NCBI GenBank assembly: GCA_050949315.1
Contig: JBMNFL010000001.1
Location: 901,888-965,887 of the forward strand
Length of the DNA stretch: 64,000 nucleotides
Reading direction: 5' to 3'
Source of the DNA: Bacilli bacterium
Lineage (GTDB): Bacteria > Bacillota_I > Bacilli_A > RFN20 > UBA1709
Shown: positions 1 to 10,722 of the stretch, piece after piece
Layout of the letters: every line of letters begins with the position of its first letter
How positions within the stretch are numbered: the first letter of the stretch is position 1
The notes under the pieces: generated by a model
Told to the model about the DNA's origin: nothing
The model's input: the letters and a program-made list of their open reading frames with translations, nothing else
Database searches by the model: none
Made by a program: the position numbers and the translations under genes

Positions 1-336
1 TATAACCATAAAGTTGCCGGCTTAGGAACTGTCGTTGGTTGGTTTTCCACGCCGACTGGTTTCTTTATCATCGTCGTCTTACCCTGTGTGGCCTTCTTAG
101 TTTATGAAATTTATCATTTTGTCAAGACTTTGACTGCTTATAATAAAGAGAAAAATAAAGGGGCCAGTAAGGAAGTTGAAACTGAACAACTGGTGGCCCT
201 TAGAAAAGAGGCGCTGGAGGATCTAGTTAAATCTGGAGTCTTGAGTACTGAAGAGGCTGAAACAAAATTGAAGGAATATCAAGATAGTTTAAGTCAGACT
301 GAAGTTGAAGAAGTCAAAGAAGAAAATAAAGAATAA
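1..336 (+). CDS. 3' end of a gene running off the window start. It is a C-terminal fragment with one predicted TM helix followed by a charged E/K-rich tail. Function unknown.
   Basis: The frame is open from nt 1 (YNHKVAGLGTVVGWFSTPTGFFIIVVLPCVAFLVYEIY...) to the stop at 334-336. The listed 88..336 ORF is only its internal Met. Hydrophobic segment then ...EKNKGASKEVETEQL...EEVKEENKE. It loosely resembles the C-terminal TM-plus-tail of the SipW at 3703..4314. Confidence 0.4.
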   Translation, partial: YNHKVAGLGTVVGWFSTPTGFFIIVVLPCVAFLVYEIYHFVKTLTAYNKEKNKGASKEVETEQLVALRKEALEDLVKSGVLSTEEAETKLKEYQDSLSQTEVEEVKEENKE

Positions 337-353
337 CAAGAAAGGGTAAGCAA

Positions 354-2003
354 TTGCCCTTTCTAAATGAAGGGGTTGGTCTAATGGACGGTATTAATAG
401 ATTCGCACAATATTTCATGGATTTTTGTTCTAATGTTTGGGAACAAATTAAGAGTTTTTTTGTTGCCTTTTATAATATTGTAGCGGATGTCTTAGTTCGC
501 AATCACATTTCTAATTTTCGTATAATCGGGGAATATGCTGATAAGTTCACCGTTTTATCTTGGATTTTATTTGTGTTTATTGAAGCGCTTATTTGCGCCT
601 TTTTAGTTTTATTAGTTTGGAAGATTGTCCAATTATTGAGTCGTTGGCTCAAGTTTAGACGCAAAGAAGTTGACAAAGAAGATCTTCTAATTGAAATCGC
701 CAAATTAAAAACGCAAGTAGTCAAAGTTACTAGAGAAAAGGATCGCATTCTTTCTTTACAACTCGGCAGTGGGGGAGGACTTGTCGATACTGAGAGTTTA
801 AATCTTGGTCCTAGTTTAGTTCCCTCAACAGCCCTAGACACGATTCCGGATACTACAGAAATTGTTAGCACCACTGAAAGCAAGGATGAATTAGCGCAGG
901 TTGTTAGCGATTCGCGCTTCTCAAAACTAATTTTAGTTGATGAAAAATATAAAAATGGTAATTATGTTGTGACCATGACGGCGGAGGATATGGTTGGTTT
1001 ACCAGAACTGGTTGCCCGCTTTGTCAACTATTCAGCCTCACAACACAAGTTATTCTATACCCCTAAGACCATTTCTAAATATGTGGCGGGGTTAGCTACT
1101 TCTAAGATTATTATTCTTGAAGGTATCTCGGGTACAGGTAAAACCTCTTTACCCTATGCCTTCTCCCGTTTCCTTAAGAATCAAGCGGTTATTGTTTCTG
1201 TTCAGCCTTCTTGGCGTGATCGGACTGAGATTTTAGGTTATCTTAACGAATTCACTAAGAAATTTAATGAGACCGATTTCTTAAAAGCCGTTTATGAGGT
1301 TTCTTATCGTGAGGATGTTAACACTATCGTGCTTGATGAATTGAATTTAGCCCGTATTGAGTATTATTTCGCTGAGTTCCTTTCGGTGATGGAAATGCCG
1401 GATATCTCTGAGTGGAAGCTAGATTTAGTACCCACTCAACTACCTGGAGATCCCAAGCACTTAAATGGTGGCAAACTTTTAATTCCCCAAAATGTTTGGT
1501 ATGTAGGAACGGCTAACCGTGATGACTCCACCTTTACGATTACCGATAAGGTCTATGATAGAGCCATCACCATCTATCTTAATGAGAGAGCGAAATACTT
1601 TGATGCGCCCTATACTGAGCCGGTTAATATCTCCTATGATTATTTAGAAAAGCTCTTTAGTATGGCGGCTGAGAAACATCCGATTTCTTTAAAGGCTCTT
1701 CAAAATCTTGATAAGATTGATGTCTTTATTCAGGATAATTTCAAGATTGCTTTTGGTAACCGTATTCTCAAACAGATTAGAATCTTTGTTCCTGTCTATG
1801 TTGCCTGTGGCAATACCGAGACTGAGGGACTTGACTTTATGATCTGTACCAAAATCCTTAAAAAGTTTGAGGCCTTAAACCTTCCGTTCTTACGCAAAGA
1901 GTTAGAAGAGTTAATTTCCTTAATTCAAAAATTATTTGGCAAAGACGCCTTCACCGAATCAATTGCCTATCTGCGCGATTTATTGAAGATGGCGGGCGCT
2001 TAG
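354..2003 (+). CDS. Membrane-anchored AAA+ NTPase of the McrB/AAA_5 type
   Basis: Walker A GISGTGKT at nt 1122-1145. hhhhDE-type Walker B IVLDELNLAR. Sensor-like VGTANRDDSTF. N-terminal hydrophobic helix VLSWILFVFIEALICAFLVLLVW, then a coiled-coil linker. The start may be the ATG at 384, which has a GAAGGGG Shine-Dalgarno. Confidence 0.7.
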   Translation: MPFLNEGVGLMDGINRFAQYFMDFCSNVWEQIKSFFVAFYNIVADVLVRNHISNFRIIGEYADKFTVLSWILFVFIEALICAFLVLLVWKIVQLLSRWLKFRRKEVDKEDLLIEIAKLKTQVVKVTREKDRILSLQLGSGGGLVDTESLNLGPSLVPSTALDTIPDTTEIVSTTESKDELAQVVSDSRFSKLILVDEKYKNGNYVVTMTAEDMVGLPELVARFVNYSASQHKLFYTPKTISKYVAGLATSKIIILEGISGTGKTSLPYAFSRFLKNQAVIVSVQPSWRDRTEILGYLNEFTKKFNETDFLKAVYEVSYREDVNTIVLDELNLARIEYYFAEFLSVMEMPDISEWKLDLVPTQLPGDPKHLNGGKLLIPQNVWYVGTANRDDSTFTITDKVYDRAITIYLNERAKYFDAPYTEPVNISYDYLEKLFSMAAEKHPISLKALQNLDKIDVFIQDNFKIAFGNRILKQIRIFVPVYVACGNTETEGLDFMICTKILKKFEALNLPFLRKELEELISLIQKLFGKDAFTESIAYLRDLLKMAGA

Positions 2004-2018
2004 TTGGGGTGCGTTTAA

Positions 2019-3713
2019 ATGGCAAAGGCAAAGACCAATTATGAGAAACGCTTTTATCAACGCATCTTAAAAGCTATCAATAGAGAAGACGCCAAAGGTT
2101 TTTATAAAGAATTTAATAATGCGATTAAAAGTGGCAAAATGACCATTAGCCAGATGCGGACCAAGAGTCAGCTTTCTTTTGATGCGACTTGGATCAATGT
2201 TATTACCAGTTACTTACCATATCTAGAGAAGATTGTTCGCAATCCTAGGATCTATATGGAAGCCATCGAGATGGTAACACCAATTCAATCAGCCAAGAAA
2301 ATCACCGCTCGTTCCGTTCAGCATCTTTCAGCCAATGTGCAAAATGTTCAAGAGATTCGTAGTGATGGAACCATCGTTCCTTCTAAGGTGTTATCCACCA
2401 TCTACGAAGACACGATGAATATCTATGAAAACCGCTTTATTATGACACTTATTTCTAAACTGGCGGCTTTTGTGGAAGTGCGTTATGAGCAAATTGCTGA
2501 AAAAACGGAGTCCTATCAAACCGATTATTTAAGAGTTCAAGATGTCTTTAAGTGGCGAAACTATGATATTGAAGCCAATATTGATTTAAAGGTTAAAGAA
2601 CAGGTTGAGGATGAAGAAAGTCAAAAGAATTTAGAACTCGTCGAGGATATCAGAACCATCCGTAGTTATGTACGGGGTTTTATGCAGTCGGCTTTCTATC
2701 AAACCATGAAGGAAAGTCGGGCGCGAGCCGTTAATCCGCCGATTCTAAGGACCAATATCATTGTTAAGTCAGTTGAATATAATAGTTGTTTAAAATTATG
2801 GCAGTTCTTAGATTCCTATCGCCAACTTGGGGTCAGTGTTGGTGTCTTTGATAAGGAACTGGATTTTGATGAAGACTTTGTCAATAAGGTCAGCGATATG
2901 TTAATGCTGAATTATTCTTTAATCACCGAGAATCAAGCTGATCGTGAAGACACTTATAATCTTTTGCCCTATAAAAAGCGTAGAGAAAAAGAAATACGCT
3001 TTAGTAAGACCGAATTAGTTGTTGAGGAAATGCTGGATGAGGATGCCGATATTAAAGCCGTTCCCCCTACTATTTCCGAATACTACTATCAAAGGATGAA
3101 GCAGATTTCAAAGACCAACTTCACTAGACAAGTGAATTCCGGTATTTCTTATAATCGTTCCTTTTTAAATATTTATAAGAAAATGTTAAAAATTGAAAAT
3201 GGTGTGCAAAAAGAAATTCTACAAGGTCTTGAAAAAAGATTACGTAAAAGATATCCAACTAAGATAAAATCCGCCGCCAAGGTCACTTTTTTGAAAAGAG
3301 TTCGCTCAATTTATAAATCGGTGATTTTAATTAAGAAAGCCGACTTAGAAAGCGCGGAGGCGAAGTTAAGAAAAGCCGAAGCCGATCTTGAGAAAAACAT
3401 GGCTTTAATTAAACCTGAAACCAAAGCTTTCCGCAAGAAAGAGCGGGAAAAAGCGGCGCGCCGGGCTAGAAAGAAAGCTCGGGCCAAGGGCTTACCAGTA
3501 CCGAAGATGAAAGATTTAATTAAAGAGGAAGAAGAAGAGCCAATCATTGATCTTCCCGAAGTTGACGATGAAGATCTTTCTGAAAGCGAATTATTAGCTA
3601 GTGAGGATGAAGTCGTTAAAAAGCCCGTAAAAAAGGCGGTAAAGAAAGGCGAACCGGAGCCGATTGATGTCGTCATTGTTAAAGCTAATGAGGATGAAGA
3701 GGATGAAGAGTAA
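2019..3713 (+). CDS. Partner protein of the AAA_5 NTPase. Soluble 564-aa protein with an extremely charged K/E/A-rich C-terminal tail. Possibly McrC/DUF2357-like, which I cannot verify.
   Basis: Starts 16 nt after the NTPase stop with a GGGGTG Shine-Dalgarno. No TM segment and no recognisable PD-(D/E)xK nuclease motif. The C-terminal ~130 aa is low complexity (KAEADLEK...KKEREKAARRARKKARAKG...EEEEEP...EDEEDEE). Confidence 0.6.
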   Translation: MAKAKTNYEKRFYQRILKAINREDAKGFYKEFNNAIKSGKMTISQMRTKSQLSFDATWINVITSYLPYLEKIVRNPRIYMEAIEMVTPIQSAKKITARSVQHLSANVQNVQEIRSDGTIVPSKVLSTIYEDTMNIYENRFIMTLISKLAAFVEVRYEQIAEKTESYQTDYLRVQDVFKWRNYDIEANIDLKVKEQVEDEESQKNLELVEDIRTIRSYVRGFMQSAFYQTMKESRARAVNPPILRTNIIVKSVEYNSCLKLWQFLDSYRQLGVSVGVFDKELDFDEDFVNKVSDMLMLNYSLITENQADREDTYNLLPYKKRREKEIRFSKTELVVEEMLDEDADIKAVPPTISEYYYQRMKQISKTNFTRQVNSGISYNRSFLNIYKKMLKIENGVQKEILQGLEKRLRKRYPTKIKSAAKVTFLKRVRSIYKSVILIKKADLESAEAKLRKAEADLEKNMALIKPETKAFRKKEREKAARRARKKARAKGLPVPKMKDLIKEEEEEPIIDLPEVDDEDLSESELLASEDEVVKKPVKKAVKKGEPEPIDVVIVKANEDEEDEE

Positions 3714-4314
3714 GAAGGGCAAGTATCTCAAAAGAATCGCTTTAGTTCTTCTTGAATTACTCATCCTTTATATTGTTATTAAAGTCGTTATTGGGGTGGC
3801 GACAAATAGTCCAGTAAATGTCTTTAATCACTATGTCTTCGTTGTTAAGACGGAGTCGATGCAAGACTTTATTAACCCGGGGGATATCGTTTTTATCCAA
3901 AAGTGTCAGATTGATAAGGCGCAAATAGGCGATGTCATCTCCTTTACTTGTATTAACCCCACTCAAACTATTTATGGTAGTAACATCATCCATCGCGTAG
4001 TTGATAGAGAAGTTGTTGATGGCCTTATAAGACTAACAACTAAAGGCGATGCCAATGTTATTATTGATGAATACCAAGTTACTGGGGCCAACTTTGTCGG
4101 CCGAGTTACCCTAGTATCCCCCTTCCTAGGCCGCGTCTTTAATCTATTTGTCAGTACTTACCTTTCTTTATATCTAATTGTTCTTGTTCTACTTTTATTT
4201 GTTATTGTCAGTGTGATTAAACGTATGATCAAGTTAGTAAAAGAAGAGCATAGACAAAAGGAAAAAGAGAAAATCAAAGAAGAAATTCTAGCCGAAAAAA
4301 GAAGAGGAGAATAG
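3703..4314 (+). CDS. sipW: Signal peptidase I, SipW (archaeal/ER) type, with a C-terminal TM anchor and charged tail
   Basis: Has the S26B boxes TESMQD (catalytic Ser), GDIVF, IIHRV (His) and TKGDANVIID. There is an N-terminal signal-anchor and a C-terminal TM. The ORF track starts at 3664. The ATG at 3703 (MKSKKGKYLKRIAL) has a GAGGA Shine-Dalgarno inside the upstream gene's ...EDEEDEE tail, and overlaps the upstream stop by 11 nt. Confidence 0.8.
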   Translation: MKSKKGKYLKRIALVLLELLILYIVIKVVIGVATNSPVNVFNHYVFVVKTESMQDFINPGDIVFIQKCQIDKAQIGDVISFTCINPTQTIYGSNIIHRVVDREVVDGLIRLTTKGDANVIIDEYQVTGANFVGRVTLVSPFLGRVFNLFVSTYLSLYLIVLVLLLFVIVSVIKRMIKLVKEEHRQKEKEKIKEEILAEKRRGE

Positions 4315-4317
4315 AGC

Positions 4318-6861
4318 ATGAAAAAAAGGAGCATCTTTATCTTTCTAGCAGTTTCCATTATTCTTTCCTTATTCATCAGCATAATTTATATCGTTAAAGC
4401 CTCTTCAATTGTTGAAGCTAAAGCCCACAGCAACGTGCATAGTGTGGCTACAGAAACCGCGGCTTACTTAGATAACAATGTGCAGAATACTCATGATGAT
4501 ATTGCTTTTTATATTGAAAATTCTACGAAAGAAAAAGGTGAACTGGTCAGTGAGCTCTATTCTAAATATAGTAGTCGTTTTATCGGCTTTGGTTATTGTG
4601 AGGGCATAAGCGGCGAAGATCCTAAACTCGTTTCTTATGCGGGCAAGGATGATTATGAGTTATTTGCTTTTAACTTTTCCCATTCGGAGCGCTTTTTCGC
4701 CCAGCAATGTGCCATAACTAATTTATCAAGATTCTTTGATAATCTAACGGATGAGCAAAATGAAGTGGTCATCTTCTATCATTTTGACGATTATTTTGCC
4801 TTTCAGCCCTTTTCGGCTTATGAGACGATGTTGAGCAGTGCTTATCCTGAGGGCACTAGATATCTTGTTAGCACAGGGGATGGCTTAATCTTAGCCAATT
4901 CTTTCAGTGACGATATGTCGATGAGCAGCATTTTTAGAATGTCAGTTGATCCCTTCCCTGGTTTTGTTGAGGATATCTTAGCAGGTGAGGGTCAATCTAA
5001 AATAATGAAACTCAATAAAGGCTTATCACATTTAGTTACTGTTTCCACTTGTTTAGAAGATTTTAATGATGATGGTGTTTATATCTTTGTCATCGTCGAT
5101 AATATTTATATCACTAATTTCTTGAATTCACTGCTTATCATCACCGCGATTTACAATGCCTTCTTTATTGTGATCAATGTTGGGATGGCGCTAACCATGT
5201 ATTTTACTAAGCGCAGCAGTCGGGACTTAATTATTCCCTTTTCCTATGAAGATCATTATGTTTTACTGGTCGGTGAAGATGGTAAGATTATAAGTAAAAA
5301 CAAGCGTTTTAGCAAATCAAAGTATAATTGTGGCAATCTACTAAGAACAGGGGTTGTTGAACTTAAGGAGCAAACAACTGAAGAATTAAAGAACTTATTA
5401 GAAACAGCTTCTTCTTTGACTTTGCGTTATGTCTTTGATGATAAGATTGAAGATATCAATTTCTTGATTTTAAATTCAAAGATCGGCTATCAATTAATTG
5501 CCGAAGCCTATGATGATGCTTATATAGCTCGTGATAGGAAGGGTAGCAGAAGAGGGGTTAGTATTGATTATGCTTATCAAGATGATTTTTACGATATTTT
5601 AAATAGAAAAGCGCTATTAGAACGTTTGAAGGATACAATTGCCAACAAGAAGAAATATTTAAATGTTTATCTTGTTTGTTGCTCCTTGAAAAATCACGAT
5701 GAAATTACGCGTTTATATGGTCAGCATATTCACGAGATGATTAATACAGAAGTTATTAATCGCTTGAAGAAGTCTTTAGATGGTAATGAGATCTACTCTA
5801 TCAATGACAATTTCTGTGCTTTCTTTGTTCATTTAAAGGATAACTTCAATGATTTAAGAAGACAGATGGAAGTTATTAATAAAGAGCAAAGACATCCTAT
5901 CAGTATCTATTCCAGTGATTCAATAGTTGAGCCCTATTTCGGTATTTATCCTCTTTCTTTAATTGAGGCCAATGAAGATCCAACGCCAAGAGGTATTATC
6001 AATAAGGCGATAATTGCCTATAACCGGGCTAAACAGAGTAAGGATCAAAACTATTATTTATACGATATCAGTTCCGAGTCTTTGCTCGAACGTGAGCAAA
6101 TAGTAGCGGATGATATTAAAAAAGGTATTGAAAACAATGAGTTTGAGACCCACTTCCAACCAGTTTACAATTTAAAAGAAGATCGGGTATCGGGCTTTGA
6201 ATGTCTGTTAAGATGGAATAATGACAAATACCGTTTTGAGTCGCCGTATGAATATATCAAAGTTGCCGAGCATGCGGGCTATATCCACGATATTGGTATT
6301 TTTACTTTCCGCAAGGCCTTGGAGTTACTTAAAGAGTTAAATAGAGATGATATTCGAGTATCGGTTAACGTTTCGCTTGCTCAATTTATGCAGGCTGGCT
6401 TTACCACGGATGTTATTAATCTTTTTAAGGAATATGATGTTCCTTATTCCAGTGTGGCGATGGAAATCACTGAGACTTTCTTTGCCGAGTCTATTCAAGA
6501 AATTACTGATAAATTAGAATATATTCGTTCCTTTGGCATTAAAATTTATCTAGATGACTTTGGGACGGGCTACTCATCTTTGCTTTATTTAGCAGAGTTC
6601 CCAGTGGATGTTATTAAGATTGATAAAGAATTTACCAATCAAATTAAAGCTAATGAAAGTGTAAGAACAATTATGTCTTATTTAATTGGTATGGCTAATG
6701 CCATAGGTTTAGATGTGGTGGCTGAGGGTGTAGAAACCGACTATCAGCTCAAGTTCTATGAACGCCAGAAATGCAATTATATACAAGGCTTTTATTTCTC
6801 TAAACCGCTACCAGTGTCTGAGGTCCAAAAGGCCTTAGAAATCAAAAGGAGTGATGTCTAA
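4318..6861 (+). CDS. Membrane sensor protein (two TM segments flanking a ~250-aa extracytoplasmic domain) with a degenerate GGDEF domain and an EAL domain. Probable c-di-GMP phosphodiesterase.
   Basis: EAL-domain signatures are present: FQPVYNL, GFECLLRW (ECL variant of EAL), NVSLAQF, EITE, YLDDFGTGYSSL, EGVET, QGFYFSKP. The GGDEF position reads SINDNFCAF, which is degenerate. It starts 4 nt after the sipW stop with a GAGGAG Shine-Dalgarno. Confidence 0.8.
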   Translation: MKKRSIFIFLAVSIILSLFISIIYIVKASSIVEAKAHSNVHSVATETAAYLDNNVQNTHDDIAFYIENSTKEKGELVSELYSKYSSRFIGFGYCEGISGEDPKLVSYAGKDDYELFAFNFSHSERFFAQQCAITNLSRFFDNLTDEQNEVVIFYHFDDYFAFQPFSAYETMLSSAYPEGTRYLVSTGDGLILANSFSDDMSMSSIFRMSVDPFPGFVEDILAGEGQSKIMKLNKGLSHLVTVSTCLEDFNDDGVYIFVIVDNIYITNFLNSLLIITAIYNAFFIVINVGMALTMYFTKRSSRDLIIPFSYEDHYVLLVGEDGKIISKNKRFSKSKYNCGNLLRTGVVELKEQTTEELKNLLETASSLTLRYVFDDKIEDINFLILNSKIGYQLIAEAYDDAYIARDRKGSRRGVSIDYAYQDDFYDILNRKALLERLKDTIANKKKYLNVYLVCCSLKNHDEITRLYGQHIHEMINTEVINRLKKSLDGNEIYSINDNFCAFFVHLKDNFNDLRRQMEVINKEQRHPISIYSSDSIVEPYFGIYPLSLIEANEDPTPRGIINKAIIAYNRAKQSKDQNYYLYDISSESLLEREQIVADDIKKGIENNEFETHFQPVYNLKEDRVSGFECLLRWNNDKYRFESPYEYIKVAEHAGYIHDIGIFTFRKALELLKELNRDDIRVSVNVSLAQFMQAGFTTDVINLFKEYDVPYSSVAMEITETFFAESIQEITDKLEYIRSFGIKIYLDDFGTGYSSLLYLAEFPVDVIKIDKEFTNQIKANESVRTIMSYLIGMANAIGLDVVAEGVETDYQLKFYERQKCNYIQGFYFSKPLPVSEVQKALEIKRSDV

Positions 6862-8324
6862 TGATATTAGCAAGAACAGCAAGTACTAGTGATCCAGTCT
6901 TTACGGGTTTGATCATTATTGTGATAATTGGCCTAAGTGTTTTACTACTTTGGTCCATTATCCGCGAAATGAAAAAAAGAAAAAAAGAACGGGAACAACC
7001 AAAAAAGACCCCAGGTTTAATGTCCTTATCCCATTTGACGGAGTCTTTAAACGAATTTGTTCGGGTTTATCACCTTTCTAAGAAGGCGACAATTTTTGTC
7101 TTTTCCTTTGCTAATGCCAATGAACTAGCCGAGTCGTTTGGTCGTCGAACCGAGATGATTTTAAAAGATAAGGTTCTCCAGAATGTGATAAAAATTCTCC
7201 CTAGAAACGCGGTTTTAGCTGAATACAGGAACGAAAGCGATAGTTACGCTTTACTATTAAGAGGCGATTTTCCTGAAGACAAACTCTTAAGTTTTGCTAA
7301 CTACCTAGTCAGCGTTATTGAAACTCCTGTTGCGGTTCCTAACCTTGAGATTGAAATTTCCTATTCAGCTTATTTAGGTATTGTCTATTATCCAACTCAT
7401 GCCATTTCGGTTACTGATTTGTTAAACAAGGCCGATGTCGCTCTTTATATGAACCAGAAGAGCCCTAACACCAAATACACGGTTTATTCTTCCTCTTTCG
7501 CGGTTACCGAAGAAGAGAATCTTGTTTACTATAACCAAATCAAAGCCGCCATTAAAAACAAAGAATTTGAACTTTATTATCAACCAATTTGTGAATGTAA
7601 AACCCAAAACATTGTTGGTTTTGAAGCCTTGATTCGCTGGAAACATCCAGAATTAGGCATATTAAATCCAGCCAAATTCCTTTCTGTTTTAGAGAATTCT
7701 GGGGATATAAACTGGATTGGCAAATGGAGCATGCATGTTATCTGTGCTTACTATAATGAACAGCGCGCTCTTTTCAAAGAACATAATGTTTTCTTCTCAG
7801 TAAACCTTTCAGTTAAGCAATTGCTCAATGAGAACTTGGTCAATGATTTTGCCGCTATTCTCAATCAATATCATGTGCCTACTGACGCAATTTGTTTTGA
7901 AATTGAAGAATATGCCCTTTATGAACGTTATCCTGTCATTCAAACAACGATTCGAGAATTAGGAGAGAAAGGTTTCAAACTCGCTATTGATCACTTTGGT
8001 TTAGATTCTAATAACATCAAGAAATTAGAATCACAAGAACCCTATATGATTAAACTTGTAGCAAAAGACACCTTGGAAGCCCAAGACTCCTTTGTTGGGT
8101 CGCGTGTTTTCGAGATTTTAATTGATACCTGTAAAAAGCGAAATATTAAAATTTCCTCTTTAATGGTTGAAAATCAAGATGATATCAAAAAACTTGAAGA
8201 AAGCGGTTTTGATTATCAGCAAGGCTATTTTATTGCTGAGCCGATGAGTGCTAAAGACAATGCTGAATTCTTTTCCGCCAGCTTTCGCCTAAAAGAAGAT
8301 GAAAGCAAGAAAAAGGAAGAATAA
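6861..8324 (+). CDS. Membrane protein with a degenerate GGDEF and a partly degenerate EAL domain. Likely a catalytically inactive c-di-GMP-binding protein.
   Basis: The EAL motif is intact (GFEALIRWKHPELG). DHFGLDSNN replaces DDFGTGYSS and VENQDD replaces EGVET. An ATGA overlap with the upstream stop at 6859-6863 indicates translational coupling. N-terminal TM IIIVIIGLSVLLLWSII. Confidence 0.7.
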   Translation: MILARTASTSDPVFTGLIIIVIIGLSVLLLWSIIREMKKRKKEREQPKKTPGLMSLSHLTESLNEFVRVYHLSKKATIFVFSFANANELAESFGRRTEMILKDKVLQNVIKILPRNAVLAEYRNESDSYALLLRGDFPEDKLLSFANYLVSVIETPVAVPNLEIEISYSAYLGIVYYPTHAISVTDLLNKADVALYMNQKSPNTKYTVYSSSFAVTEEENLVYYNQIKAAIKNKEFELYYQPICECKTQNIVGFEALIRWKHPELGILNPAKFLSVLENSGDINWIGKWSMHVICAYYNEQRALFKEHNVFFSVNLSVKQLLNENLVNDFAAILNQYHVPTDAICFEIEEYALYERYPVIQTTIRELGEKGFKLAIDHFGLDSNNIKKLESQEPYMIKLVAKDTLEAQDSFVGSRVFEILIDTCKKRNIKISSLMVENQDDIKKLEESGFDYQQGYFIAEPMSAKDNAEFFSASFRLKEDESKKKEE

Positions 8325-8367
8325 AAAGAAAAAAGGCAAAAAATGCTGACTTTTTCCAAAAATTAAG

Positions 8368-8396
8368 TTGCAACCAAGAAATATTCGTTCTATAAT
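8368..8396 (+). promoter_or_regulatory. Sigma-A-type promoter for the cold-shock gene, followed by a long 5' UTR
   Basis: TTGCAA (8368-8373), a 17-nt spacer, then TATAAT (8391-8396). The ~55-nt leader before csp is typical of csp genes. Confidence 0.6.
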
Positions 8397-8450
8397 AACT
8401 TTGCATTTAGAAATAGATGCATAGTCTAAAAATGACGGAAGGAAGTAAAA

Positions 8451-8648
8451 ATGAAGGGCGCAATTAAGATGTTTAGTAAAGAAAAGGGCTTCGGCTTTAT
8501 TCGCACCGAAGAGGGCAAGGATGTCTTTTTCCACTACTCCGAACTACAAATGGAAGGCTTTAAGACCGCTGAAGTTGGCGAAGAGGTTGAATTTGATGTT
8601 CAAGAATCGGACAGAGGTCCTAGAGCTGCTAATATTCGCAAGTTATAG
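8451..8648 (+). CDS. Cold-shock protein (CspA family)
   Basis: Contains KGFGFI and VFFHYS, the RNP1/RNP2-like motifs of the CSD. 65 aa. Confidence 0.9.
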   Translation: MKGAIKMFSKEKGFGFIRTEEGKDVFFHYSELQMEGFKTAEVGEEVEFDVQESDRGPRAANIRKL

Positions 8649-8659
8649 TAGCTAGTGAG

Positions 8660-8684
8660 AAAACCACGAAAGTGGTTTTTTTGT
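8660..8684 (+). terminator. Rho-independent terminator after csp
   Basis: Stem AAACCAC, loop GAAA, stem GTGGTTT, then TTTTTTG. Confidence 0.75.
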
Positions 8685-8728
8685 TTCTCATAAAGTAGTA
8701 TAATACCTAAGAGGTTAGGAGGGGTTCT

Positions 8729-9832
8729 ATGCCATTAACAGCGGGAATAGTTGGTTTGCCAAATGTTGGAAAATCCACCCTTTTTAATGCCATTACTTCT
8801 TCAAGTGTTATCGCTGAAAACTATCCTTTTGCTACTATTACGCCTAATACGGGGATCGTTGAAGTTAAAGATTATCGTCTAAACTTTTTGACTAAACTTT
8901 TTAAATCGGCGAAGACGATAGCCGCCACTTTTGAATTTCGGGATATTGCTGGCTTAGTAAAAGGGGCTTCTAAGGGTGAGGGGTTAGGCAATCAGTTTTT
9001 AGCTAATATTCGCGAGACTGATGCCATTTGTCATGTGGTTCGTTGTTTTGAAAATGCGGCCATTATTCATGTTGATGGCAGCATTGATCCTCTTAGAGAT
9101 GTAGAGACAATTGATATTGAGTTAATTATGGCGGATTTAGAAAGTGTTGAGAAACGTTTGAGTCGGATTGAAACTAAGGCCCGCCTTCAAAAAGAGGGAG
9201 AGGCGCTTATTGAATATAACCTTTTAAGTAAGATAAAAGAGAAACTATTAAAAATGCAACCAGCTCGCAGTCTACCTTTTAGCGAAGCGGAGGCAAGTCT
9301 GATGCGCTCCTTTCAACTCTTAACCGCAAAACCTGTTATTTTGATTGCTAACCTAGGGGAAGAAGATATTGTTAATCCTAAGGCCAATAAATATTATCAA
9401 GTTTTAGAAAGTGTCGCTCAGAAAGAAGGGGCTGAATTAGTAGCTATCTGTGCCCAAGTAGAAGCGGATATAGTTTCTCTTAGTCCAGAAGATAAGGATA
9501 CGTTTTTAAAAGAACTTGGCTTGCAAGAGAGCGGCCTTGATAAACTCACGCATGCTGCTTATAGTCTATTGGGTTTAAAGACTTTCTTTACCGTTGGGTC
9601 AAAAGAGAGTAGGGCCTGGACTTTTAAAAGTGGAAGTAAGGCTCCTGTTTGCGCAGGCATTGTCCATTCAGATTTTGAACGTGGTTTTATTAAAGCCGAG
9701 ATTTATAGTTTTGAAGATTTAGTAAAATACGGCAGTGAGCAAGCCGTTAAAGATAAAGGACGATTAAGAATAGAAGGGAAGGATTATATCGTTCAAGATG
9801 GCGATATTGTCCATTTTAGGTTTAATGTGTAA
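8729..9832 (+). CDS. ychF: Ribosome-binding ATPase YchF/Ola1
   Basis: GIVGLPNVGKSTLFNAIT G1 motif. C-terminal TGS-like region. 367 aa. Confidence 0.9.
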   Translation: MPLTAGIVGLPNVGKSTLFNAITSSSVIAENYPFATITPNTGIVEVKDYRLNFLTKLFKSAKTIAATFEFRDIAGLVKGASKGEGLGNQFLANIRETDAICHVVRCFENAAIIHVDGSIDPLRDVETIDIELIMADLESVEKRLSRIETKARLQKEGEALIEYNLLSKIKEKLLKMQPARSLPFSEAEASLMRSFQLLTAKPVILIANLGEEDIVNPKANKYYQVLESVAQKEGAELVAICAQVEADIVSLSPEDKDTFLKELGLQESGLDKLTHAAYSLLGLKTFFTVGSKESRAWTFKSGSKAPVCAGIVHSDFERGFIKAEIYSFEDLVKYGSEQAVKDKGRLRIEGKDYIVQDGDIVHFRFNV

Positions 9833-10722
9833 TGAAAAGAAAAGTAGGTTTAGTTTTAGGTGGAGGCGGCGCTAAAGGCGCCTATCAAGTCGGCGTTTAT
9901 AAGGCTTTACGCGATCATGGGCTTATCGATGAAATAAAGGCTATTTCTGGCACTTCAATCGGTGCGCTAAACTTAGCCCTTTTAGCCTTGCAAGAAGTTG
10001 ATCAAGCTGCGGAGATTTGGCTCAGCCTTACCAAGAGAAAAGTTTTGACTCTTAAGCATTGGAAAGAGTATTTAGATTTCAAGAATTTTAGTGTTCTTTC
10101 GCGTAAGGGAATGCTAGAAATTTTTAGTAGTGAAATTGATTTTAAACGCGTCAGTGATTGTAAGATTCCACTTTATGTCTGTGCCACTAATCTTAGAGAT
10201 AATGTTGGTGAAACCTTTAAATTAAATGGGCTCAGTGAAGAAGAGATTATTGATCGTCTTTCCGCTTCTAGCGCTATCCCCACCGTTTTCCCCAACGTTG
10301 AGATCAATGGCATCCGTTATATGGATGGCTATCTGTATGATAATGTGCCGATTAATAGTCTAGTGGTAAATGAAGGTTGCAATTTTTTATATGTTGTTCC
10401 CTTAAGCGCCTTTCATTTTCCTAAGCCTGAAGATTACCCTAATCAAACTCTAATTGTCTTTGATGAACCGGCTTTTGATGACTTAAAACTCTGGGATGGG
10501 ACTTTGAGTTTTGGCCATGCTGTTGCTAAGTACCGCTTAGAATTAGGTTATGACAATGCGATGCGTCTTATTAATTATTTAAGACAAAAAGGGCTTATTT
10601 ATAAGACTAGAAAAGAGAAGGTTAGACGCCTATTTTCTGTCCTTACCAGGCGAACAAAAAAGCTTAAAAAATATTATTCTGTCAGTGGTTTAGATCCCGT
10701 GATTAAAGAGGAAAAAGAATAG
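9832..10722 (+). CDS. Patatin-like phospholipase
   Basis: GGGGAKG oxyanion motif, GTSIG nucleophile elbow, DGY Asp motif. ATGA overlap with the ychF stop. Confidence 0.8.
   Translation: MKRKVGLVLGGGGAKGAYQVGVYKALRDHGLIDEIKAISGTSIGALNLALLALQEVDQAAEIWLSLTKRKVLTLKHWKEYLDFKNFSVLSRKGMLEIFSSEIDFKRVSDCKIPLYVCATNLRDNVGETFKLNGLSEEEIIDRLSASSAIPTVFPNVEINGIRYMDGYLYDNVPINSLVVNEGCNFLYVVPLSAFHFPKPEDYPNQTLIVFDEPAFDDLKLWDGTLSFGHAVAKYRLELGYDNAMRLINYLRQKGLIYKTRKEKVRRLFSVLTRRTKKLKKYYSVSGLDPVIKEEKE

Follow-up and report, generated by a model that had tools for sequence, protein, structure and literature searches.

The window analysed here is a 64,000-nucleotide (nt) stretch of the genome of a Bacilli bacterium (contig JBMNFL010000001.1, positions 901,888 to 965,887 of the forward strand), and it opens within an operon centred on a McrB-like GTPase and an adjoining partner derived from McrC, with SipW-type signal peptidases on both sides. 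We hold it rather probable that this locus is a module of the CoCoPALM type, in which the GTPase pair of McrBC restriction has been re-used for the cell surface, and the evidence strongly favours a cell-surface assembly module over a DNA-restriction system. CoCoPALM is the name that Bell, Sahakyan, Makarova, Wolf and Koonin (eLife 2024; PMC11090510) gave to a large clade of NxD GTPases, to which that article devotes one paragraph, deferring it to a later paper. The original prediction, made from the letters alone, had preferred an envelope, secretion or signalling role to DNA restriction and had denied that the pair is a canonical McrBC, and both judgements hold, as the pair has neither a nuclease nor a DNA reader and is not confined to defence islands; since the class already bears a name, that inference was right but not unprecedented. 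The pair shows the following features (window positions; aa, amino acids; TM, transmembrane).

384 to 2003, forward strand: McrB-like GTPase of the NxD type, 539 aa (549 aa from an alternative TTG start at 354)
549 to 638, forward strand: predicted TM helix of the GTPase, aa ~56–85 (Kyte–Doolittle, 19-residue window, peak 2.91)
651 to 758, forward strand: predicted short coiled coil of the GTPase, aa ~90–125, about five heptads (heptad analysis, 16 homologues)
1122 to 1145, forward strand: Walker A, GISGTGKT, aa 247–254, invariant in the 16 homologues
1326 to 1340, forward strand: Walker B, IVLDE, aa 315–319, aligning to the Walker B of McrB
1515 to 1526, forward strand: McrB signature motif in a shortened form, NxD then D (N378-R-D380-D381), invariant in the 16 homologues
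2019 to 3713, forward strand: McrC-derived partner without nuclease, 564 aa
2028 to 2522, forward strand: DUF2357, the McrC N-terminal domain, in the partner, aa 4–168, with invariant YENRF (aa 136–140) and R155
3072 to 3488, forward strand: long helices of the partner, aa 352–490, including a single helix of 74 residues (417–490), a coiled-coil-like arm (AlphaFold2)
3489 to 3710, forward strand: tail of the partner, aa 491–564, mostly disordered and rich in K, E and D (pLDDT <50 at 510–516 and 518–564)

Judged by its sequence, the 539-aa protein is a McrB-like GTPase of the NxD clade in which a TM helix and a short coiled coil replace the N-terminal DNA reader; its layout comprises a conserved aromatic N-terminal segment, one TM helix, the short coiled coil, a variable linker and the AAA+ GTPase domain. 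The C-terminal ~370 aa resemble the AAA+ domain of E. coli McrB (6hz4; phmmer E = 4.9e-4, aligned aa 221–396), and the alignment takes in Walker A, Walker B (LDE) and the signature loop, where N378-R-D380-D381 falls on the MNTADR motif of McrB. Among the 16 homologues, L317, D318 and E319 of Walker B are without variation and the AAA+ domain has a mean column identity of 63%, so that the GISGTGKT P-loop and hhhhDE Walker B noticed at the outset are present and invariant. The residue after the signature motif is S, and of 150 family representatives 142 have N-x-D-[DE]-S. When 1.84 billion representatives were scanned in full with HMMER, 731 clusters were found at E ≤ 1e-30; a TM helix precedes the P-loop in 84 of the top 150 family representatives, and identity reaches about 50–55% over 98% of the length with Acholeplasma laidlawii, A. 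hippikon and many metagenome-assembled genomes (MAGs) of Acholeplasmataceae. The profile searches proposed with the original prediction divided: AAA_5 remained sub-threshold in the GTPase (18.2 bits, cutoff 22), while DUF2357 was recovered in the partner above the Pfam cutoff (E = 1.7e-7).

The open reading frame (ORF) listing confirms two co-directional frames, 354–2003 (549 aa from TTG) and 2019–3713 (564 aa), but the true start of the GTPase is most likely ATG 384, because a Shine–Dalgarno-like GAAGGGG run lies 8 nt 5' of this codon, all homologues in the alignment begin at the equivalent Met, and the GTPase of a 97%-identical strain is annotated as 539 aa. The spacing between the two genes, given earlier as 16 nt, was counted as 15 nt. 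The TM helix is the sole hydrophobic segment of the GTPase and is followed by the basic stretch RWLKFRRKEVDK, so that, by the positive-inside rule, the GTPase domain and the remainder of the protein beyond the helix are predicted to lie on the cytoplasmic side. In the coiled coil, hydrophobic residues occupy the a/d positions at 0.64 against 0.23 elsewhere, with E95, K98, L101, E118, K119 and I122 invariant (16 homologues), and both N-terminal elements described in the original prediction are thus upheld. No Pfam domain was matched in the N-terminal 170 aa, and no DNA-binding reader domain was found there.

In McrBC, the N-terminal domain of McrC sits as a plug in the hexamer of McrB and stimulates its hydrolysis of GTP. 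The partner carries this domain, lacks a nuclease triad and continues into long helices and a charged tail, and on these grounds it is, as far as sequence can tell, a McrC derivative in which the ring-plugging, GTPase-stimulating domain is kept and the nuclease has given way to helices and tail. In an alignment of 44 sequences the invariant columns are D55, P121, L125, Y136-E-N-R-F140, R155, P241, I242 and T245, all confined to the first ~250 aa; past aa 155 there is no conserved D, E or K and nothing like a D...(D/E)xK triad, and the partner matched no nuclease family in Pfam, NCBIfam, PADLOC or the PDB sequences. The earlier view of an adaptor therefore stands as to the missing nuclease and falls as to a protein unrelated to McrC, since DUF2357 had been overlooked. 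The AlphaFold2 model (pLDDT 78) is alpha/beta to about aa 320, followed by the long helices and the disordered tail, and PDB matches of the partner profile are of the coiled-coil type only. The charged K/E/A-rich end of ~130 aa, also described before, corresponds to aa 430–564 (19% E, 18% K, 11% A). Homologues are 445 to 998 aa long and align over only 44–90% of the query, with tails varying in length and sequence. In the partner of A. laidlawii (L004:9552-11885, 777 aa), the K/E coiled coil is much longer than in the window, and the C-terminus bears two short helix-extension-helix (Rho_N/SAP-like) repeats with a faint Pfam Rho_N match; as the partner in the window lacks these repeats, the tail appears to be a variable module.

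The gene order in the genome of the window is two paralogous secreted proteins, SipW1, GTPase, partner, SipW2, EAL, EAL, and then housekeeping genes (CSD, YchF, UppP, UDG and ECF transporters), and a prophage-like element lies directly upstream in this strain. The members of the operon around the pair within the window are as follows.

1 to 336, forward strand: 3' end of SipW-type signal peptidase no. 1, with C-terminal TM helix and a K/E-rich cytoplasmic tail of ~70 aa
3703 to 4314, forward strand: SipW-type signal peptidase no. 2, 203 aa (TIGR02228 E = 7.5e-19, 68.1 bits, cutoff 51.85)
4318 to 6861, forward strand: long EAL protein, 847 aa, with membrane sensor, degenerate GGDEF and EAL (Pfam EAL 1.1e-63, GGDEF 3.9e-6)
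6861 to 8324, forward strand: short EAL protein, 487 aa, with TM helix, degenerate GGDEF and EAL (Pfam EAL 3.9e-54)

The genes are tightly coupled, as had been said of the pair, SipW and the two EAL genes: the ATG of SipW2 at 3703 overlaps the partner stop by 11 nt, EAL1 begins 3 nt past the SipW2 stop, and the two EAL genes share 1 nt. The genome of the window recurs in several metagenomes (loci L001–L003), which gives the complete SipW1 gene (L001:7554-8318, 254 aa), starting upstream of the window; its product scores 57.7 bits with NCBIfam TIGR02228 (cutoff 51.85) and E = 1.5e-24 with the SipW model NF046067, contains SDSM, SHRI and KGD as catalytic motifs, and has a weak SHOCT-like Pfam match in its tail. 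SipW2 has ESM, IHRV and KGD, with TM helices at aa 7–38 and 144–180 followed by a charged cytoplasmic tail (window 4150–4314), and both paralogues carry the Ser/His/Asp motifs of archaeal-type signal peptidase I (SPase I). The tails of the two are about 30–70 aa long, and tails of this kind are conserved across loci (medians 44 and 35 aa, about 50% charged). That these tails, the K/E helices of the partner and the coiled coil of the GTPase are all cytoplasmic suggests that charged helices may form a network through which the peptidases are joined to the ring.

With its ECL motif and canonical DDFGTG, the long EAL protein is likely an active phosphodiesterase of cyclic di-GMP (c-di-GMP), while its short neighbour has DHFGLD where DDFGTG is expected, probably lacks catalytic activity and could serve as a receptor for c-di-GMP. 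The same division is seen over 31 loci, with DDFGxG kept in the long paralogue at 20 of them and absent from the short one at 30. Because a GGDEF motif is present in neither protein, the source of c-di-GMP would lie elsewhere in the genome.

The neighbourhood was surveyed by ORF calling and phmmer at 84 loci, with counts taken over loci having enough flank. The partner adjoins the GTPase in 72 of the 76 loci that extend far enough downstream, a SipW gene ends <400 nt upstream of the GTPase in 62 of 63, a second SipW follows within 5 kb downstream in 63 of 66, and EAL genes occur in 24 of the 34 loci with 8 kb on both sides. The linkage to SipW, secreted subunits and c-di-GMP genes is shown, and the association with SipW and EAL genes seen first in one sequence recurs among the 84 loci in these numbers. 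A pattern scan with one genome per species gave at least 537 matching stretches, and the best 80 loci of these belong to Acholeplasma, Paracholeplasma, Anaeroplasmataceae, Izemoplasmatales, Mariniplasma, Peloplasma, Coproplasma and loosely labelled Bacilli and Clostridia MAGs. About 50% GTPase identity over 98% of the length spans Acholeplasma, Paracholeplasma, Anaeroplasmataceae and Izemoplasmatales, and the order of the operon is conserved across these Acholeplasma-like wall-less Bacilli, a lineage without a cell wall. Synteny and identity kept over a whole lineage point to a vertically inherited envelope operon, not a defence island. In A. laidlawii the core is as in the window, with two GGDEF-EAL genes upstream and three SipW-type peptidases, and three distant versions, whose partners are ~23–30% identical, stand beside EAL or GGDEF genes, small ORFs and giant surface proteins. 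Among the operon neighbours (SipW, EAL and the secreted beta-sandwich proteins) no HEPN, nuclease or other effector was matched. A promoter and terminator scan gave the same counts as shuffled sequence and is therefore uninformative.

Several loci depart from this scheme. Contig DIER01000016.1 of an Acholeplasmataceae member (L061 and L077) has two GTPase copies ~10 kb apart, the second without a detectable adjoining partner, and L079 and L080 have no partner at the phmmer threshold. In L002, which is the same strain from another metagenome, the GTPase gene (8337-9985) is broken into ORFs of 375 and 196 aa and the second EAL gene (L002:14843-16307) into ORFs of 185 and 308 aa, which are either frameshift pseudogenes or assembly errors.

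The putative substrates of the peptidases are encoded upstream of window position 1, and no further subunit genes were found within the window. The motif A-W-F-S-M-N is invariant at their predicted signal-peptidase site, and a conserved EGxD motif stands at the C-terminus. The family evolves fast and has 24 database relatives only; its profile aligns to an A. laidlawii paralogue with an hhalign probability of 91.8%, and A. laidlawii encodes at least seven small proteins with signal peptides ending in x-A-W-[FL]-[ST], one of which scores 18.1 bits with the SipW-cognate signal model TIGR04088, below its cutoff of 19. An AlphaFold2 model of the subunit is all-beta (pTM 0.76), with the first 37 residues disordered. 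Together, we judge the AWFS-motif proteins to be SipW substrates and plausible fibre subunits, while their membership of the TasA family (PF12389) is not established.

In the strain of the window the first subunit gene (L001:5313-5800, starting point about 2.2 kb outside the window on its upstream side) is interrupted at the A-W-F-S codons, the intact version reading ...ACTTATGCTTGGTTCTCAATGAAC and that of the window strain ...AGTACCTTTTTCTCAATGAAC. The interrupting element carries two large serine recombinases and phage-like genes, and in a related strain (L088:2156-2917), 97% identical over the shared pilin-to-GTPase stretch, the gene is intact with its signal peptide and without the insertion. 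The element may be a prophage like skin or SPbeta, which interrupt genes, and the insertion may also mean that a phage shuts off a surface structure serving as its receptor. The subunit genes are preceded by a gene for a membrane-anchored protein without the AWFS motif (L088:1366-2133, L004:4407-5123), which is kept between the lineage of the window and A. laidlawii (BLASTP E = 2e-7), has a C-terminal W-x-D-G motif in common with the subunits and might serve as the base of the fibre or as its anchor in the membrane. Giant secreted proteins also lie near the operon, of 2476 aa in A. laidlawii (L004:15394 onward), 5667 aa (L085:11473 onward) and 2615 aa (L086:1-3512), some with Flg_new-type repeats, and they may be adhesins; they were not counted as parts of the system because those of A. 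laidlawii (2476 aa) and L085 (5667 aa) have ordinary signal peptides without the AWFS motif.

To hypothesize how these parts work together, the GTPase ring would be held beneath the membrane, with TM helices and coiled-coil stalks as its tethers, and activated by the McrC-derived plug of the partner, whose K/E-rich helices, together with the charged cytoplasmic tails of both SipW proteins, would link the ring to the peptidases. GTP hydrolysis would then gate or drive cleavage of the subunits by SipW, the cleavage would release the strand conserved at their N-terminus (WFSMN...), allowing a surface fibre to polymerise by donor strand exchange, and c-di-GMP would tune the output through the active-plus-degenerate EAL pair. 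In this general form, as a tethered and plug-activated ring gating or powering SipW-dependent fibre assembly, we favour the mechanism with moderate confidence, and we place less in its specific contacts.

Several points weigh against the mechanism. The contacts between the coiled coils and the SipW tails are pure inference, and our literature search found no experiment on any member, whether on fibre formation, SipW cleavage or the need for the GTPase. To our knowledge, neither TasA-type nor thread-type fibres need cytoplasmic NTP hydrolysis, and thus the role of the GTPase is not explained by precedent. Regarding the subunit, Foldseek of the model against the PDB gave nothing at E ≤ 0.001, its profile had no match among PDB sequences, and Pfam TasA/camelysin PF12389 reached only E ~ 0.05, in the signal region alone. 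Homology of the GTPase N-terminus to FtsB/DivIC, a CoCoPALM trait, was not detected by the Pfam profiles even at E ≤ 10 and could not be reproduced. In addition, the GTPase domain matches the PADLOC defence candidate PDC-M26A (3.5e-37); the match is to the GTPase core only (aa 185–348, profile positions 268–431 of 724), and PADLOC gave zero matches for the partner and SipW, so that the PDC-M26 pair is incomplete.

A bolder version, which we consider tentative and rather doubtful, is that the McrB-like ring with its McrC-derived plug is the energy source of a hitherto unrecognised kind of pilus machine, a GTP-driven AAA+ motor anchored in the membrane, which under c-di-GMP control and via SipW would build a donor-strand fibre on wall-less bacteria, perhaps anchoring or retracting it. 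If true, this machine would be distinct in mechanism from the type IV/Tad, chaperone-usher, sortase and TasA pathways. Should even the general proposal hold, the restriction motor of McrBC has been converted into a membrane machine that makes surface fibres, an unusual adoption of a defence system for another function of the cell, and there is a new pilus route in which a Sec/SipW-dependent substrate is coupled to GTP hydrolysis in the cytoplasm. Bacteria like Acholeplasma, Izemoplasma and Anaeroplasma, many gut and rumen MAGs among them, appear to have the operon as a core trait, and it could explain the attachment and biofilm formation of wall-less cells as well as their retained c-di-GMP signalling genes. 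Since A. laidlawii is culturable and carries the full locus, the idea is testable directly.

The explanation that competes best, although we regard it as unlikely, is a regulatory checkpoint with no motor, where the GTPase and its partner, as a membrane nucleotide switch, sense the state of the cell, or c-di-GMP by way of the degenerate EAL protein, and permit or block SipW activity or expression of the operon without mechanical work on the subunits. The conserved pair of an apparently active and a degenerate EAL protein fits it, as this pairing resembles the c-di-GMP receptor logic of LapD and FimX. SipW-dependent fibres known so far need no NTPase (PMC9245690), and the shortened NxD motif is predicted by Bell et al. 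(PMC11090510) to alter the hydrolysis rate. McrB-family proteins are, however, hexameric AAA+ mechano-enzymes, and the conservation of the AAA+ domain together with the YENRF plug motif argues for a full catalytic cycle; the checkpoint also overlaps the assembly mechanism preferred here, and the two are hard to tell apart computationally.

Anti-phage or anti-plasmid defence appears improbable. The GTPase pair would in that case form a membrane McrBC/CoCoNuT-like sensor with a non-nuclease effector, e.g., shutdown of the membrane or of secretion via the signal peptidases (abortive infection), which is consistent with the ancestry from type IV restriction, the PDC-M26A match, the prophage-like element immediately upstream in this strain, and the defensive role predicted for the sister CoCoNuT clade by Bell et al. 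(PMC11090510). The PADLOC match is nevertheless limited to the GTPase core, the operon encodes no nuclease, HEPN or other effector that we could find, its order and sequence (~50% identity) are kept across an order-level lineage, unlike patchy and fast-moving defence islands, and its downstream neighbours are housekeeping genes. A defence island was rejected as the principal explanation because of the housekeeping and secretion neighbours and the lineage-wide synteny. The coiled coil of FtsB stands on the side of the membrane opposite to the cytoplasm. Least probable of all is a role in cell division or membrane architecture, with an FtsB-like TM helix and coiled coil recruiting the GTPase to the division site and the SipW link secondary. 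In its favour, the host has no cell wall, the GTPase gene behaves as a core gene, and an FtsB-like homology is reported for the N-terminal module by Bell et al. (PMC11090510). Against it, the N-terminus has no FtsB/DivIC Pfam match, its coiled coil is predicted to be cytoplasmic and thus opposite to FtsB in topology, and the invariant neighbours encode signal peptidases and secreted proteins, not division proteins.

Compared with known systems, the surface assembly module proposed here has a functional analogy only with the ATPases PilB and TadA of type IV and Tad pili, where a cytoplasmic hexameric NTPase is likewise coupled through the membrane to filament assembly, often under c-di-GMP control. 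Those ATPases belong to the PilT/VirB11 class, which is unrelated to the AAA+ McrB clade; moreover, the subunits of the locus have signal peptides of the Sec/SPase I type instead of class III, and there is no PilC-type platform protein at the locus. Closer to the secreted side are tapA-sipW-tasA of B. subtilis, archaeal bundling pili and the so-called threads, which also encode an archaeal-type (Ser/His) signal peptidase beside its substrates, have substrates with a conserved motif that spans the cleavage site (T-x-A|W-F-S here, T-W-A|A-F-N-D in TasA), and build on all-beta subunits with a free N-terminal strand, which is here predicted. Unlike the locus, these systems have no NTPase, while the locus has two or three SipW paralogues and hosts without a cell wall.

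With canonical McrBC (E. coli 6hz4; T. gammatolerans 6ut5) the locus shares the AAA+ GTPase core, Walker A and B, the N..D signature loop, the McrC N-terminal plug domain on the partner and the gene order B then C. It differs in having a TM helix and coiled coil in place of an N-terminal DNA-binding domain, an NxD-D signature instead of NxxD, a partner without PD-(D/E)xK nuclease, and a position outside defence islands with apparently vertical conservation. CoCoNuT systems are of the same NxD GTPase clade (GTPase-domain identity of 40–47% to long TM-less relatives), bear coiled coils on both subunits and often have a McrC homologue without active nuclease. They are, in contrast, cytoplasmic and always have HEPN or another nuclease nearby, according to Bell et al. 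(PMC11090510), whereas the locus has no nuclease at all, a TM-anchored GTPase and secretion genes as neighbours.

The closest resemblance is to CoCoPALM itself. As described in the available part of Bell et al. (PMC11090510), "NxD, usually followed by D or E" defines a major non-canonical branch of McrB, and CoCoPALM members have a fused FtsB-like TM and coiled-coil module, with coiled coils on both the McrB and McrC homologues; the text of the eLife supplement contains nothing on CoCoPALM, and our literature search found no later work on it, nor on Acholeplasma pili or c-di-GMP. Shared with that description are the NxD-D signature of the GTPase, the TM helix and coiled coil fused N-terminally (FtsB sequence homology was not reproduced with HMMER), the adjoining DUF2357 McrC homologue with coiled-coil or charged helices, and signal-peptidase-family genes nearby, which are SipW genes on both sides here. 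Three of the four defining features were tested for and found, and on the available description the locus is a member of this named, uncharacterised class. New beyond that text are the two flanking SipW peptidases with charged tails, the AWFS subunit family, the EAL pair and a distribution throughout the Acholeplasma lineage.

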